Shown here piece by piece: positions 43,211 to 48,804 of a stretch of 64,000 nucleotides of DNA. Below the pieces are notes generated by a model, which saw nothing but the letters and a program-made list of their open reading frames with translations, ran no database searches and was not told the origin of the DNA. A program made the position numbers and the translations under genes. The stretch's first letter is position 1. Each line of letters starts with the position of its first letter. Origin of the DNA: Escherichia phage ECBP2; the sequence record NC_018859.1. The stretch is one strand, 5' to 3'.

Positions 43211-45244
43211 TTAATGTTTACCTTTACAGTAATCTGAATTACAGATCACCCTGTTTTCTTTGTTTAGTGAGCAAATTTCTGCATCACGCCACGGAATTTG
43301 TTTATAACAGACTGCACAAAACCCAATTGAAGTCCAGAGGGCTTTTGTGAACTCAGCTGTTCGTTGTCCGTCGTAACTGACAACTGTTTTTCGGAGAGTT
43401 GTTTGCTTTTCTGGAAATGTCTCCGCTTTCTCAGCGGGCACCTCCTTTGGGGCATTCTTTGGACCATAAACAGAGATGGCATAGGTATCGCCACCACGTT
43501 TTTCCAAATAAGAGTTTGGAACATCAGACAATTCAATGTCACCAGAACGTTTAGCTGAGCTGACCATTACAATCATCCGGCTAAGCATACGCTGATCAAC
43601 ACGAACTGCTACTTCAGGGCGGCGTGGGTTAGTTGTGTCAACTGCTTTAGTCCAAATGTAACCTTCAGACAATGTAGTGTTAGTCACTTTGTCTTTGATT
43701 TCTTTGGCACAGACATAACAAATGTCTTCACCACGCAGTTTACTCATTTCATTATCAAACTCGAAATCAGTTTTAACATTACCACACACAGCACAGACAC
43801 CCAAAGGAATGTCTTCATCTTCTTCAGATGGTTTGGAGAGTGCTTCGAAACAGGCCGGATGCCAATATGCTTGGTAAGCGAACACAGCTTTCTTAGCATC
43901 TTTCCAATCAATGTGCTTATCACAACCACCACAATCACCGTGAGAATGTGATTCCCAGAACTTACGAGTGACTTCTACACCATTCTTAGTGATGAAGGAG
44001 TCTTCTAAGTCAAAAGGGATATCATCATCAAAATCAGCGGTGGTGCTTTGAGGCTCCTTATCGGTAGCGTCAACAAACAGCCCTGAAGTTAGTACGAGGC
44101 GAATCATACTGTCCACTTCGGAGATACAAGCAACTGTCCCGCGATACACTACCTTTGGGTTTTCGAGAGCCTTCAAGTACTCACTCTTGGCTACATTATG
44201 AACATCACCCTCAACATATTCTTGAGCAGCATCATCATAAATATAACCAACCATCTTACCACGGTCAGTGTTGTTGTAAGCATGGAACTCGTGAGGGATG
44301 ATATCCACACGACCATCACGACGATATGGAAGACCACGATCGGCAGCCAGTTTATTCTGATCTTCAATCGCTTTACGACGGCGAATGTCTCCGCTTGTCA
44401 CGCCGGGCTTGTCGTCTTTGTTTCCGTAAATGTCGCTTGTGCTGCTGCTTGATTTGTTTGTCTGTTGGCTCTGATATAGTGAGGAGTTCGAGTAATAGCC
44501 GCCCCAGCGACTCGTTACCGTAAAAACCGGAAGCTTGTGCTCCACCTCTTGAGTCAGAGTCATACGGTTGCCAGACAAATCAAAGATGTATTCAGTTCCC
44601 ACTTTACACTCAAAGTGATCATTGATACGGTTCTTGTGTGACTTGGAACGATTAAGAATCCACATCAACATATCTTCTTCAGAAGCACCAAACCAATCCA
44701 GACCACAACGGGCCAGATGGAAAGGACGTTCATCGTTACGAATGATATGCAGAGTATTGTCTTTGGCGTCATGCCAGATTAAAGTGAACGCACCATCCAA
44801 CTTCTGGATAGTCTCTGCTGCACCAATGGTGTTGATTGAATGACAGATGTTTTCGCTATCAACTTCGAAGTTCTTATGGTCAGGTAACAGCTCTTGGTCC
44901 ATCAATGTACCATTGTGAACCAGAGTAATGTCACCATGAGAGAACGGGTGAGCATTTCGAGCATTGACAGCGCCACGAGTGGCATGTCGGCTATGACCAA
45001 CAATCCACGCTGGAGGAACTACATAGTTCGTAAGCCCCTTAGTAATATTCGTGTACTCTGTCTGAAGCATGAAAGCATAAGAAGGAAGTGCTTCTTTATA
45101 AGAAAACACTCTTGCATCACTTTTACGCTGACCGAACACACCAGTTGAGTGCTGACCACGGAAGACTCCGGCATACAGAAGCTGGTTGAATACGTCTAAG
45201 TCTGTGGAGGTCATGTTGCCCCCAGCTAATACGATACCACAAAT
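43211..45244 (-). CDS. Class II (Ntn) glutamine amidotransferase fused to a multi-zinc-ribbon C-terminal region; AUU start
   Basis: In-frame upstream of the track ATG the sequence reads TAG AAA ATT TGT GGT ATC GTA, that is (M)CGIVLAGG, the canonical Cys1 N-terminus of PurF/GlmS-type enzymes. AGGTGG lies 8 nt before the ATT. Later motifs are HSRHATRG and LVHNGTL. The C-terminal half has several CxxC pairs. Confidence 0.8.
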   Translation of the reverse strand: MCGIVLAGGNMTSTDLDVFNQLLYAGVFRGQHSTGVFGQRKSDARVFSYKEALPSYAFMLQTEYTNITKGLTNYVVPPAWIVGHSRHATRGAVNARNAHPFSHGDITLVHNGTLMDQELLPDHKNFEVDSENICHSINTIGAAETIQKLDGAFTLIWHDAKDNTLHIIRNDERPFHLARCGLDWFGASEEDMLMWILNRSKSHKNRINDHFECKVGTEYIFDLSGNRMTLTQEVEHKLPVFTVTSRWGGYYSNSSLYQSQQTNKSSSSTSDIYGNKDDKPGVTSGDIRRRKAIEDQNKLAADRGLPYRRDGRVDIIPHEFHAYNNTDRGKMVGYIYDDAAQEYVEGDVHNVAKSEYLKALENPKVVYRGTVACISEVDSMIRLVLTSGLFVDATDKEPQSTTADFDDDIPFDLEDSFITKNGVEVTRKFWESHSHGDCGGCDKHIDWKDAKKAVFAYQAYWHPACFEALSKPSEEDEDIPLGVCAVCGNVKTDFEFDNEMSKLRGEDICYVCAKEIKDKVTNTTLSEGYIWTKAVDTTNPRRPEVAVRVDQRMLSRMIVMVSSAKRSGDIELSDVPNSYLEKRGGDTYAISVYGPKNAPKEVPAEKAETFPEKQTTLRKTVVSYDGQRTAEFTKALWTSIGFCAVCYKQIPWRDAEICSLNKENRVICNSDYCKGKH

Positions 45245-45321
45245 TTTCTAATCCACCTGAAGGGTAAACCCTTTCATCTAATTAACCTTTAAATGCGCCC
45301 TTTATCAGAGCGCCCATTGTA

Positions 45322-46422
45322 TTACAGCAGTCGTTCTAATTGCATTTCCAGATGGTCTGGAATATAACCAGTGACGTTATCATCACTGCTACCCGATTCA
45401 CGCATCAATGCAAACATGTGACGAATTTCACGAACCGTTGCGATTCGAGTGCTTTCAATCTGAGGGGTGTAATAGGTCATGATCTCTTCATAGACAGCGT
45501 TGGCATTACCACGAACATATCCCAAGAAACCATAGAAGTCACCCATATCACGCAAGTTGATAAGGACTTCACCATCAGGGCCAGTCTGTTGTACACGAAC
45601 ACGACCAACCAGAGTAACAGAATGTTCACGACAGAACAGAATATCACGAGCCAAACGATAACCACCAGTCAGGTCATCATCATTAGGTGTGTAGTCCAGA
45701 GGCAGATACTGAATCATAGGAGCGAAGCGTAGCTCATTCAGTTTCTCAACATATGCTTCATTGTCCAAATCTGCATACTCAACAGCCAGTTTCTTAAGAA
45801 CCAAGAAGCGGTTGACCAGATTAAGGAGTTGGCTTTTCTTCCACTTTGGCTCTGAGATACGAAATTCAACAGAACCAAACTGAGCCAGAGGTAATAGGTT
45901 AAGGGAGGTGTACTTGTCCCAGCTATTAACAAGAGTATTGAAGAAGGCTTCACCATCTCGGTTGAACGCTGAGGAAGCATTCATTACCTGTGCTTGAACA
46001 ACAGCAAAGGCAGGACAGAAGTTGCTACGATAACGATGATATCCAGAACATTTGAACATCATCTTTTCATAGAACGTCCATCCAAGAATTACTTTCTTCA
46101 GGATATTACTATCAGCGTCACGCATATCCATATGAACGTGAGTAGAGCAGCGCCAAGTCCCTTCAGCTTCAGAGTCTTGTACTGCTTCACTCAGATTGTT
46201 AATAGCACTAAGCAATTCTACACCGTTGTAAGGCCGTGCACAAACCATCTCACAGCCATCACGAAGTGAACCATCTTCAGTACAGACCCAAAGATCTGCA
46301 TCAATTTCAGAGGTTCCTTCAACTTCCAGCTCGATGCCAATACCACACTGAAAAGCGATGCTTGGGTGCGGCTCAGCCAGACGAGCATTACGGTATCCAA
46401 AAACTTGTGCTACGGTTGTCAT
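45322..46422 (-). CDS. Glutamine-synthetase-like amidoligase
   Basis: GIGIELEVEG, CTEDGSLRDGCEMVC and RCSTHVHMD fit the amidoligase (GS-like carboxylate-amine ligase) pattern. Confidence 0.65.
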   Translation of the reverse strand: MTTVAQVFGYRNARLAEPHPSIAFQCGIGIELEVEGTSEIDADLWVCTEDGSLRDGCEMVCARPYNGVELLSAINNLSEAVQDSEAEGTWRCSTHVHMDMRDADSNILKKVILGWTFYEKMMFKCSGYHRYRSNFCPAFAVVQAQVMNASSAFNRDGEAFFNTLVNSWDKYTSLNLLPLAQFGSVEFRISEPKWKKSQLLNLVNRFLVLKKLAVEYADLDNEAYVEKLNELRFAPMIQYLPLDYTPNDDDLTGGYRLARDILFCREHSVTLVGRVRVQQTGPDGEVLINLRDMGDFYGFLGYVRGNANAVYEEIMTYYTPQIESTRIATVREIRHMFALMRESGSSDDNVTGYIPDHLEMQLERLL

Positions 46423-47054: not shown

Positions 47055-47861
47055 TTAGATAATCTGAAGTTGAGAGGAGAACTTATCCGCTTCTTTAACA
47101 TCATTGCTGTTAATGATGTTGTGAAGCTTTTCGATAGGCAAACGGGAGTGCAGAGACATGAGGATTTCCATGTCACAGCCCTGAATAACCTTATCAACTT
47201 GATCGTAAACAAACTTACGAGTGGACTGTTCACCAATCCAGAAGTTCGACAGAGAACGATATTCAATACCGTAATCTTTATAACGAATCGCCGATGCCTT
47301 ACCGTAAAGTTCTTTACGACGAGTGTCCTTGTCCATCACAACCGCTGGAAGTGACAGGAAGTAATCGCACAGCACACCCAGCATCATCTGAGTCTGACGA
47401 CTAATTTCCAGTGTACCAGTAACACCGAGGTGAACGTGACCTCCAGCGGTACGCAGACCTTTGTCTGTCGCTACCGGAGATGGGTTTTTCTGACCAGTGA
47501 AGGCGTTGAAATCAGGAGTACAGCCAAATACGAAGGCTGACGGGTGGAATGATTCCAGCTCTTCAGCAGTATACACATGAGAGCTAATCCCAAGCGCAGC
47601 TTCCATACCACGTTCATGGAGAACTTTGTTGGTCAGATCAATACCACGCTGGATGTTATCATCAAACGCTTCAAACCCTTTCTGTGGGTTAATATCAAAT
47701 TCAGCCAGAACGTTGTCTTCTTGAAGACGAACATCAGGGGCCAGATCGATTTTGTTATCTTTAGAACAGCCCAGCTTACCAGCCACAGAGGTGATAACAC
47801 CAGAAGCAGTACGAACAAACATTTCAGGGTCAGAACCAATAAGGAAAGCACGCTTAGTCAT
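47055..47861 (-). CDS. Second carboxylate-amine ligase (phage COOH-NH2 ligase type)
   Basis: IGSDPEMFV, LQEDNVLAEFDINP, GCTPDFNAF, AGGHVHLG and EYRSLSNFW. Start MTKRAF overlaps the upstream stop. Confidence 0.55.
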   Translation of the reverse strand: MTKRAFLIGSDPEMFVRTASGVITSVAGKLGCSKDNKIDLAPDVRLQEDNVLAEFDINPQKGFEAFDDNIQRGIDLTNKVLHERGMEAALGISSHVYTAEELESFHPSAFVFGCTPDFNAFTGQKNPSPVATDKGLRTAGGHVHLGVTGTLEISRQTQMMLGVLCDYFLSLPAVVMDKDTRRKELYGKASAIRYKDYGIEYRSLSNFWIGEQSTRKFVYDQVDKVIQGCDMEILMSLHSRLPIEKLHNIINSNDVKEADKFSSQLQII

Positions 47862-48804
47862 TGTAATACTCCACAAGTTCATCAAAAAGGGAAACAACAC
47901 GGGCACCAGCTTCTTCTGGTGTCATTGAGGAAGGTACTGCTTGCATCAAGCGTTCAATAAAACTGCGAACAGTAATTCTGTCCATACGCTGATCTAATAC
48001 TTCACGTTTATGGCCTGCACACATTGACCAGAGACGTAACCACTCACTCATACTTTCATAATAGTCAGGGTCTTGGTCACGACGACGGGCCATACTACGA
48101 AGAACTCCGTCATTATGGTTTCGTACATAACCATCTCTGTTAGCGTCAATACCAAATATATTCTGAACCCATACGTTTTCAGAAAATTCATCAGTTGAAC
48201 AGACCAGTGGCAAAAATGCGATTGCACTCATTTCACCGGTAAAATAGGTCGCTGCTGATTCATCATCAGTATCCACATCATGTGAATAATCCCAACGACC
48301 AAAGAAGTTACGACTTAAACCAGCTAAGCGTAAAGCTAAGCCGATTCGTTGTCGCTTGAGTAACTCTTCCTTGTCTTGAACGCCTTCCTGAAGGAACTCC
48401 ATTCCCATAAAATCCCCATCCAGATAACTCCGGAGGGTCATTAATCCAGTAAACACCTTGTCTGCTGGATGGTCTCGAAGGTTCACGGCAACTGAGTTCA
48501 CCGAAGTGACAGAGAACATGTTTTTATAACAAGACATTGAGTTAAAAATGTCTGTTGCTTCAACTAAAGCTCTTTCGATATCTTTAGCTGGTGTGCTATA
48601 AAAGTTGTGAGGCCAGAAGTTAATAACTCCAATTTCTGAAGTTCTATCACGAAGGCTTGAGAGATTGATACTGTCGCCATTAATGTCTGTAACAGAATAC
48701 ATATGCTGACAGTTGAAAGTACCAAAACAAGCTCGCCCTCTGAACACTGACTCACCAAAGTCCTCTGATGGTGTTACCGGAGCAGTCGATGCGGAGATTG
48801 ACAT
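47854..48804 (-). CDS. Hypothetical protein of the amidoligase block
   Basis: 316 aa, coupled on both sides. Confidence 0.5.
   Translation of the reverse strand: MSISASTAPVTPSEDFGESVFRGRACFGTFNCQHMYSVTDINGDSINLSSLRDRTSEIGVINFWPHNFYSTPAKDIERALVEATDIFNSMSCYKNMFSVTSVNSVAVNLRDHPADKVFTGLMTLRSYLDGDFMGMEFLQEGVQDKEELLKRQRIGLALRLAGLSRNFFGRWDYSHDVDTDDESAATYFTGEMSAIAFLPLVCSTDEFSENVWVQNIFGIDANRDGYVRNHNDGVLRSMARRRDQDPDYYESMSEWLRLWSMCAGHKREVLDQRMDRITVRSFIERLMQAVPSSMTPEEAGARVVSLFDELVEYYND

Follow-up and report, generated by a model that had tools for sequence, protein, structure and literature searches.

The class-II glutamine amidotransferase gene of Escherichia phage ECBP2 is probably translated from an AUU codon. 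We analyzed a 64,000-nucleotide (nt) stretch of this genome (sequence record NC_018859.1), hereafter the window, in which the gene lies on the minus strand. With a probability of about 0.85, the sequence of the gene and those of its homologues indicate that it encodes an N-terminal nucleophile (Ntn) glutamine amidotransferase whose synthesis would begin at AUU 45244-45242, directly before the codon of the catalytic cysteine (Cys1). The coding sequence (CDS) read from ATT matches the annotated CDS of phage Bas88 in length and boundaries. The elements on which the argument turns are as follows:

43211-45244, minus strand: class-II glutamine amidotransferase CDS read from ATT, 677 codons plus stop, for a 75-kDa product; the open reading frame (ORF) caller gave 43211-45214
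45244-45242, minus strand: putative initiation codon ATT (AUU), the sole codon capable of initiation from the in-frame TAG to Cys1
45241-45239, minus strand: TGT, codon of the catalytic Cys1, residue 2 of the primary product, invariant in an alignment of 15 diverse phage homologues (A1)
45247-45245, minus strand: AAA codon between TAG and ATT
45250-45248, minus strand: in-frame TAG two codons 5' of Cys1, which also ends a mini-ORF
45258-45253, minus strand: AGGTGG, Shine-Dalgarno (SD)-like hexamer 8 nt 5' of ATT
45214-45212, minus strand: ATG chosen by the ORF caller, codon 11 of the ATT-started protein and there an internal Met

The minus strand reads ...TTCAGGTGGAT TAG AAA ATT TGT GGT ATC GTA TTA GCT GGG GGC AAC ATG ACC..., and the interval from TAG to Cys holds two codons only, AAA and ATT. 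An earlier sequence-only reading had described this TAG-AAA-ATT-TGT layout with AGGTGG 8 nt upstream, and re-reading the sequence confirmed every position; its coordinates were right as well, although they paired plus-strand numbers with minus-strand letters and left the minus strand unstated. The hexamer pairs with the 3' end of 16S rRNA at about -7.2 kcal/mol, which is moderate. Aeromonas phage BUCT695 and every member of the Gordonclarkvirinae examined keep the in-frame TAG. The claim that ATT is the only possible initiator withstood comparison: besides the stop two codons upstream, all phiEco32-like relatives examined have the ATT unchanged, even those lineages in which no in-frame ATG is near. 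Its premise, that the cysteine must follow the initiator Met, needs narrowing. It holds here because of the in-frame stop upstream and not because it is universal among Ntn enzymes, some of which carry propeptides; in Bacillus subtilis PurF, a propeptide is cleaved off before the N-terminal Cys.

Comparison with related phages shows that the ATT is conserved and the downstream ATG is not. Among phiEco32-like Gordonclarkvirinae, Escherichia phages TH42, TH34, and Bas88 share 97% identity with the region, SU7-like phages 89%, and EP335 and the Kuravirus phages about 76%. Bas88, SU7, EP335, SU10, and phiEco32 all have TTCAGGTGGATTAGAAAATTTGTGG in identical form. Blastn matches to the leader region were found in 97 phage records, and ATT was present in every leader copy read, i.e., in nine isolates from four genera, Bas89, BUCT695, and seven metagenome contigs. 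In codons 2-8 (C G I V L A G), the seven haplotypes compared differ by synonymous third-position changes only, while ATT stays constant; this segment is therefore translated. At codon 11, the ATG of the ORF caller is replaced by CTG in Kuravirus, CTC in EP335, and AAC in BUCT695, and no nearby in-frame ATG exists in EP335 or the Kuravirus phages. It is thus not the conserved start. The resemblance of the segment ICGIVLAGG to MCGIVLAGG, with which ATG-started relatives begin, reflects homology and not chance, so that homologues share the CGIV segment rather than lacking it. The sequence-only reading had envisaged that homologues would begin either with ATG or with ATT, and the alignment gave both outcomes: many relatives start ATG-TGT and many others start with ATT or ATC.

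Profile searches support the identification of the product as a class-II Ntn amidotransferase with Cys1 as its nucleophile, as had been proposed from the sequence. Pfam detected GATase_6 (E=1e-14), GATase_7, and GATase_4 in residues 65-192, and position 2 of the PHROG 4736 profile aligned to residue 2 of the ATT-started protein. In the A1 alignment, the invariant residues are M1, C2, G3, R29, G30, H84, R86, T89, G91, N97, H99, P100, H110, N111, G112, D129, and S130. The A1 profile matched GlmS (1XFF, E=2e-17) and PurF (1AO0, 1ECB) end to end in the Protein Data Bank, with its Cys2 falling on residue 1 (Cys1) of mature GlmS 1XFF and PurF 1AO0/1ECB; the invariant R29, R86, N111-G112, and D129 align with GlmS R26, R73, N98-G99, and D123. 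At the sequence level, the defining features of a class-II Ntn amidotransferase are present. An Ntn alpha-beta-beta-alpha fold is predicted from the sequence-profile match (E=1e-17), and a single-sequence AlphaFold model of the N-domain, built with no multiple sequence alignment, had a mean pLDDT of 32.

The N-domain shares its N-terminal Cys, Arg, Asn-Gly, and Asp positions with the class-II domains of GlmS, PurF, and AsnB, collinear over about 200 residues, but the phage protein carries no sugar isomerase (SIS), phosphoribosyltransferase, or asparagine-synthetase domain. The database names 'L-glutamine-D-fructose-6-phosphate aminotransferase' and GlmS-like are unsupported because Pfam found no SIS domain in the protein. 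Nor did Pfam find any domain in the C-terminal ~430 residues, which match phage families only (PHROG 4736); the PHROG 4736 match itself spans residues 2-515 only. This C-terminal part (window 43211-44500, minus strand) is Cys-rich, with several CxxC-type Cys clusters. The protein is known to be produced, since its SU10 counterpart gp85 was detected with nine peptides (PMC4281155).

We then read the start codon across the wider family. Homologous loci were fetched from IMG/VR with three sub-alignments, and the codon aligned with residue 1 was read in 159 unique loci. One of the scans (A3) used an MCGIV pattern, which biases it towards ATG, and was therefore reported separately. The second residue was Cys in 159/159 viral loci. 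The codon before it was ATG in 110, ATT in 27, TTG in 12, ATC in nine, and GTG in one; no other codon occurred. AUU and AUC starts (together AUH) thus make up 36/159 (23%), and they make up 30/130 of the loci from the two scans with internal, unbiased search patterns. That only initiator-capable codons are found at residue 1 strongly supports this codon as the initiation codon family-wide, AUU and AUC included. In most AUH loci, the stretch from the upstream stop to the Cys contains no canonical start in frame. Two isolates, Pseudomonas phage O4 and Klebsiella phage Klyazma, carry ATC with GGAGGA 7 nt upstream. In the control set, ATG preceded Cys1 in 80/80 gammaproteobacterial glmS genes (Fisher p=1e-7). 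Parsimony on a neighbor-joining tree gave at least 20 switches between AUH and canonical starts, a count that is unreliable given ~190 amino acids at 35-50% identity.

In ECBP2 and its relatives, the AUU is embedded in a leader of exceptional constancy, which comprises:

45291-45237, minus strand: 55-nt invariant block, TAAAGGTTAATTAG through ATT TGT GG, from the alignment of isolates
45277-45248, minus strand: mini-ORF of nine codons, ATG AAA GGG TTT ACC CTT CAG GTG GAT TAG, in frame with the enzyme and ending 3 nt before ATT
45273-45260, minus strand: leader hairpin AAGGG-UUUA-CCCUU, ending 1 nt 5' of the SD; its stem is kept in BUCT695

The 55-nt block is 100% identical in nine isolates from four genera, compared with 0.17-0.7 of columns invariant in flanking 30-nt windows; adjacent coding DNA varies freely beside it. 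Pattern scans of viral and metagenome sequences for divergent leader copies, the metagenome pattern leaving 11 positions free, returned identical copies only. These included seven further metagenome copies, one of them on a contig with a synonymous TGT to TGC change in the Cys codon. One divergent copy, 86% identical over 84 nt, comes from BUCT695, an Aeromonas phage of the Grimontviridae. It keeps the ATG, frame, length, and TAG of the mini-ORF, the hairpin stem, and the ATT, and it changes the loop (UUUA to UUAA) and the SD (AGGTGG to AGGCGG) and has no SD before the mini-ORF. No wobble variation of the mini-ORF was seen in any Gordonclarkvirinae copy, so the constraint on the leader acts on nucleotides and not on a peptide. 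The leader motif TTAAAGGTTAATTAG occurs once in the window, as does the leader hairpin. A helix between GGUUUACC and GGUGGAUU that would sequester the SD was considered and dropped, as two of its pairs are lost in BUCT695. An Rfam scan of the leader gave nothing above gathering (TLS-PK6 E=0.52, ES003 E=0.06).

These features are consistent with a simple route to the active enzyme. Initiator fMet-tRNA would pair with AUU, aided by the AGGUGG Shine-Dalgarno sequence 8 nt upstream. Deformylase and methionine aminopeptidase would then strip the Met, which is permitted because Cys is a small second residue, and Cys1 would thereby be freed as the N-terminal nucleophile of the glutaminase site. The sequences themselves establish the reading frame, the homology, the conservation, and the family statistics; from these we infer that initiation actually occurs at AUU, that the Met is removed, and that the weak start may serve dosage or dependence on initiation factor 3 (IF3). 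With the weak initiator set in an invariant leader, in the order hairpin, SD, A-rich spacer, and AUU, the likely consequence would be low or condition-dependent synthesis of the enzyme relative to the amidoligases of the same operon. Within the amidoligase operon, the invariant leader would most likely keep translation of the enzyme at a low or conditional level.

AUU initiation has established precedents in the host. The pcnB gene of E. coli is a classical AUU-initiated gene and, to our knowledge, infC and pcnB are the only two E. coli genes known to use AUU. Initiation at AUU or AUC is documented in E. coli, where its efficiency is low (in some contexts a few per cent of that of AUG), IF3 discriminates against it, and it is sensitive to temperature and guanosine tetraphosphate (ppGpp) (PMC5499595). 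The AUU of infC, which encodes IF3, is conserved among orthologues, weak, and IF3-discriminated, as would be the case here by codon (PMC5499595). The two genes differ in what their start codons serve: in infC, the AUU is the sensor of an autoregulatory loop through the product IF3, and no such loop is evident for the phage enzyme. The latter is an accessory enzyme whose start is pinned by the catalytic Cys1, and AUU, AUC, UUG, and AUG alternate among its homologues.

Across the family, AUH starts differ from ATG starts in what surrounds them:

SD duplex energy: ATT -8.2 and ATC -8.9 kcal/mol; ATG -6.0 kcal/mol (p=6e-6)
Hairpin of at least 4 bp ending just 5' of the SD: AUH 42%; ATG 8% (p=1e-5)
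Mean folding z-score, positions -45 to -13: AUH -1.36; ATG -0.07 (p=9e-7)
Upstream ORF ending within -14 to +3: AUH 30%; ATG 70% (p=8e-5)

An upstream ORF usually abuts the ATG starts, and the comparison was therefore repeated within strata. The hairpin was found at 44% of AUH and 3% of ATG starts when uncoupled, and at 41% and 9%, respectively, when an upstream ORF lay close; the difference in SD energy likewise persisted in both strata. Starts with TTG or GTG also have strong SDs (about -9.0 kcal/mol), and the hairpin was not seen at them. The AUH hairpins (loci L027-L209, positions -45 to -13) are short, GC-rich, and end 1-3 nt 5' of the SD, with stems that vary by locus (GCCCU/AGGGC, GACUC/GAGUC, GGUC/GACC, GAGU/ACUC, AGCC/GGCU, and CGAC/GUCG). 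The element shared among AUH leaders is therefore one of structure and position and not of stem sequence, and the ECBP2 leader has the same layout. A stop codon right after the SD (GGAGGATAG or GGAGGATAA) was observed at position -7 in 12/33 AUU/AUC leaders, mostly ending very short ORFs (e.g., L032, L040, L078, L133, L154, L027, L130, and L075); in the ECBP2 gene, the TAG lies at -6.

These regularities allow a broader and tentative proposal for the family. Phage class-II amidotransferases may carry an exchangeable module, made up of a short GC hairpin, a strong SD, an A/T-rich spacer of about 7 nt, and AUU or AUC, that has replaced ATG leaders many times, often next to HNH homing-endonuclease genes, and in which the hairpin would be a functional partner of the start. 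Exchange of leaders is seen among near-identical proteins. Amidotransferases that are 99-100% identical carry unrelated leaders in phage O4 (ATC) and a PA11-like phage (TTG), in L055 (ATT, with HNH) and L058 (ATG), and in L075 (ATT) and L071 (TTG); the pairs with unrelated leaders at 86-100% identity comprise L027/L028 (ATC/TTG), L055/L058, L075/L071, and L178/L179 (ATT/ATG), the leader being exchanged as a unit at the 5' edge of the gene. Since near-identical proteins carry unrelated leaders, the start codon has changed by replacement of the whole leader and not by point mutation.

A related account of the origin of these starts gives them no regulatory role: AUU and AUC alleles would be by-products of repeated leader replacement associated with HNH genes inserted just upstream, tolerated or even favored as cleavage-resistant variants of the target site, and compensated afterwards by a strong SD. 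We regard this account as doubtful, though it draws on a clear association as well as on the leader pairs just described. The longest ORF just upstream was an HNH_3 endonuclease by Pfam in 8/33 AUH loci compared to 1/123 canonical loci (p=1.5e-5; the AUH loci include L029, L031, L052, L055, L066, L133, and L178), with the HNH stop codon 1-34 nt before AUH, and an HNH gene lies directly upstream of the ATC start of Klyazma (L022, 1-381). A regular-expression search for HNH motifs had given no match, and Pfam was used instead. In BUCT695 (L107, ~507-700), a decayed HNH-like ORF (GDCWLWTGCINSDGYP), judged by eye only, lies upstream of the shared leader. Several observations speak against the by-product account. 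The HNH proteins are 32-54% identical to one another and the amidotransferases 33-53%; being as diverged as the amidotransferases, the HNH genes appear to be linked to them by old vertical descent, and recent HNH mobility was not supported. Most AUH loci, including that of ECBP2, have no HNH gene, one HNH-adjacent locus (L143) starts with ATG, no cleavage site is known, and in Bas89 the HNH gene lies downstream of the amidotransferase gene. It is speculative that HNH genes drive the replacement of leaders, or that ATT/ATC represents a form of their target that resists cleavage.

Within the leader of ECBP2 itself, the mini-ORF offers another way of serving the AUU. Ribosomes that have translated it (45277 to 45248) could reinitiate at AUU, which would then be used mainly by these and not by 30S subunits binding de novo, with control exerted through mini-ORF translation and unwinding of the hairpin. 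The geometry invites such a reading: only 3 nt separate the stop of the in-frame mini-ORF from AUU, the mini-ORF encloses the downstream SD, AAAGG stands 8 nt before its ATG in the ECBP2 window, and its ATG, length, frame, and TAG are retained in the divergent BUCT695. Reinitiation is established in E. coli and is IF3-sensitive (PMC2268962). We nevertheless think it unlikely here, given that an SD-like motif is missing ahead of the mini-ORF ATG in BUCT695 and that the mini-ORF, lacking wobble variation, does not evolve like a translated peptide. Because terminating upstream ORFs are rarer at AUH than at ATG starts, coupling is not the general route for AUH starts, and reinitiation was rejected as a general mechanism.

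It is very improbable that translation starts at the mini-ORF ATG, reads through the UAG, and yields a 12-residue extension (MKGFTLQVD-X-KI) whose autoproteolysis exposes Cys1. In its favor, the mini-ORF shares the frame of the enzyme in ECBP2 as well as in BUCT695, propeptide-bearing Ntn amidotransferases such as B. subtilis PurF exist, and Arabidopsis PurF (6LBP) has its Cys at chain residue 13. Such a route would need efficient UAG decoding in ordinary E. coli hosts, and the spacing of the SD suits initiation at AUU and not merely an elongating ribosome. Other AUH homologues have in-frame stops at varied distances and no in-frame canonical start, and AUH initiation already explains the family. 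The propeptide of B. subtilis PurF represents another route to an N-terminal Cys, which the stop two codons upstream bars here barring UAG readthrough; removal of Met after AUU initiation is the simpler one. Scarcely credible is a functional start at ATG 45214, which is canonical, has GGGGG 4 nt upstream, and is chosen in several public annotations, but which would give a truncated product without the glutaminase and leave CGIVLAGGN as a decaying remnant, against the loss of this ATG in Kuravirus, EP335, and BUCT695, purifying selection on codons 2-8, the intact catalytic residues, and the invariance of the ATT and its leader.

Initiation at AUU thus remains the preferred reading, and several observations weigh against it or temper its support. 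At -7.2 kcal/mol, and with AGGCGG in BUCT695, the SD of this gene fits the pattern of strong-SD compensation less well than do the GGAGGA leaders of other AUH loci. Folding of the leader was not significant, with minimum free energy z-scores of -1.6 and +0.1. AUH starts are partly clustered, the nearest neighbor being AUH in 18/36 compared to 8 expected (22%), and the family p-values overstate independence because the loci are related to one another. With an in-frame mini-ORF ending 3 nt before AUU, the same protein might also arise by other routes. In addition, the text of the SU10 proteomics study reports no N-terminal peptide of gp85 (PMC4281155).

The ATT start of this gene is already public and is hence not new. 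It counts as known because the phiEco32 (2008), SU10, and Bas88 records already use it: a CDS begins exactly at ATT in phiEco32 EU330206 (phi32_83, 2031 nt), its RefSeq copy, both SU10 records, and Bas88. The products phi32_83 (ABY52884.1 / YP_001671828.1), SU10_085, and Bas88_0074 are orthologues with N-domains 82-97% identical, and they share the same leader, the TAG-AAA-ATT-TGT context, and the ATT start, with nothing essential different. What sets the ECBP2 lineage apart (TH42/Bas88-like, 97% identical) is the extra in-frame ATG at codon 11, which misleads ATG-only callers. The warning that such a caller would produce a catalytically dead truncation is borne out in public records. The CDS starts at a downstream ATG in MZ342906 (SU7), OQ689734 (4E8), NC_070979 (EP335), and NC_070977 (BUCT695), and the ATC-started homologues NC_031274 (O4) and OP125547 (Klyazma) are also annotated too short, by 37 and 17 codons, respectively. 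All six records lose Cys1 through cuts of 10 to ~60 codons, the cut in EP335 being ~60 residues. A literature search, which did not extend to the 2008 phiEco32 paper, found no paper discussing or testing this ATT start, and it found none tying AUU or AUC starts to phage amidotransferases. The family-level AUU/AUC pattern therefore appears to be undescribed so far. It is of a known kind, i.e., weak non-AUG starts with compensation, but is unusually frequent and cleanly anchored.

The genes upstream on the same strand encode Amidoligase_2 and COOH-NH2_lig proteins (Pfam). This suggests that the neighboring amidoligases are partners of the glutaminase, whose acceptor reaction is presumably linked to them; the biological role of the phiEco32-type amidoligase cassette is still only conjectured (PMC10580990). 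The COOH-NH2 ligase gene (47055-47906, minus strand) has a GTG start in the ORF list (283 amino acids), and PHROG 3815 aligns from residue 16 only, the M of MTKRAF. Its true start is probably this internal ATG, which would also abolish the overlap with the upstream gene. Between the amidoligase and the amidotransferase lies one further element:

45313-45295, minus strand: hairpin GCGCUCU-GAUAA-AGGGCGC (RNAfold), just 3' of the amidoligase stop (45322-45324)

In Kuravirus and EP335, a C-G pair of this hairpin is replaced by U-A, a compensatory change, and its loop varies in length. The terminator scan did not call it and it has no U-tract; for lack of the latter, it is probably not a classical terminator. 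No sigma-70 promoter was found by a scan of the intergenic region, and the promoter consensus of phiEco32 gp36, tAATGTAtA (PMC8948821), was not found here. A weak Rfam match to the ES003 small RNA at 45369-45431 (minus strand; 21.9 bits compared to a gathering threshold of 37, E=0.06) overlaps a hairpin resembling a terminator (45388-45369), which lies within the 3'-terminal part of the amidoligase gene, and is probably due to chance.

In practical terms, gene callers that accept only ATG, GTG, or TTG remove the catalytic Cys from these enzymes, and at least six public phage records contain dead truncations as a result. Conversely, Cys1 provides a built-in marker of the true start, and it is this marker that reveals AUU or AUC in 23% of 159 phage homologues compared to 0/80 bacterial glmS genes. 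Near-identical proteins with ATG, TTG, or ATT leaders amount to natural experiments on the upkeep of weak initiators. Should the tentative module reading be true, the phiEco32-like phages would have one version of the module fixed in their 55-nt leader, the hairpin may present the SD, stabilize the 5' end, or bind a factor, and the AUH start would make expression of a potentially harmful glutaminase sensitive to IF3, ppGpp, or temperature. With the start in each member fixed by Cys1, the family would then lend itself naturally to the study of AUU and AUC use by bacteria-type ribosomes.

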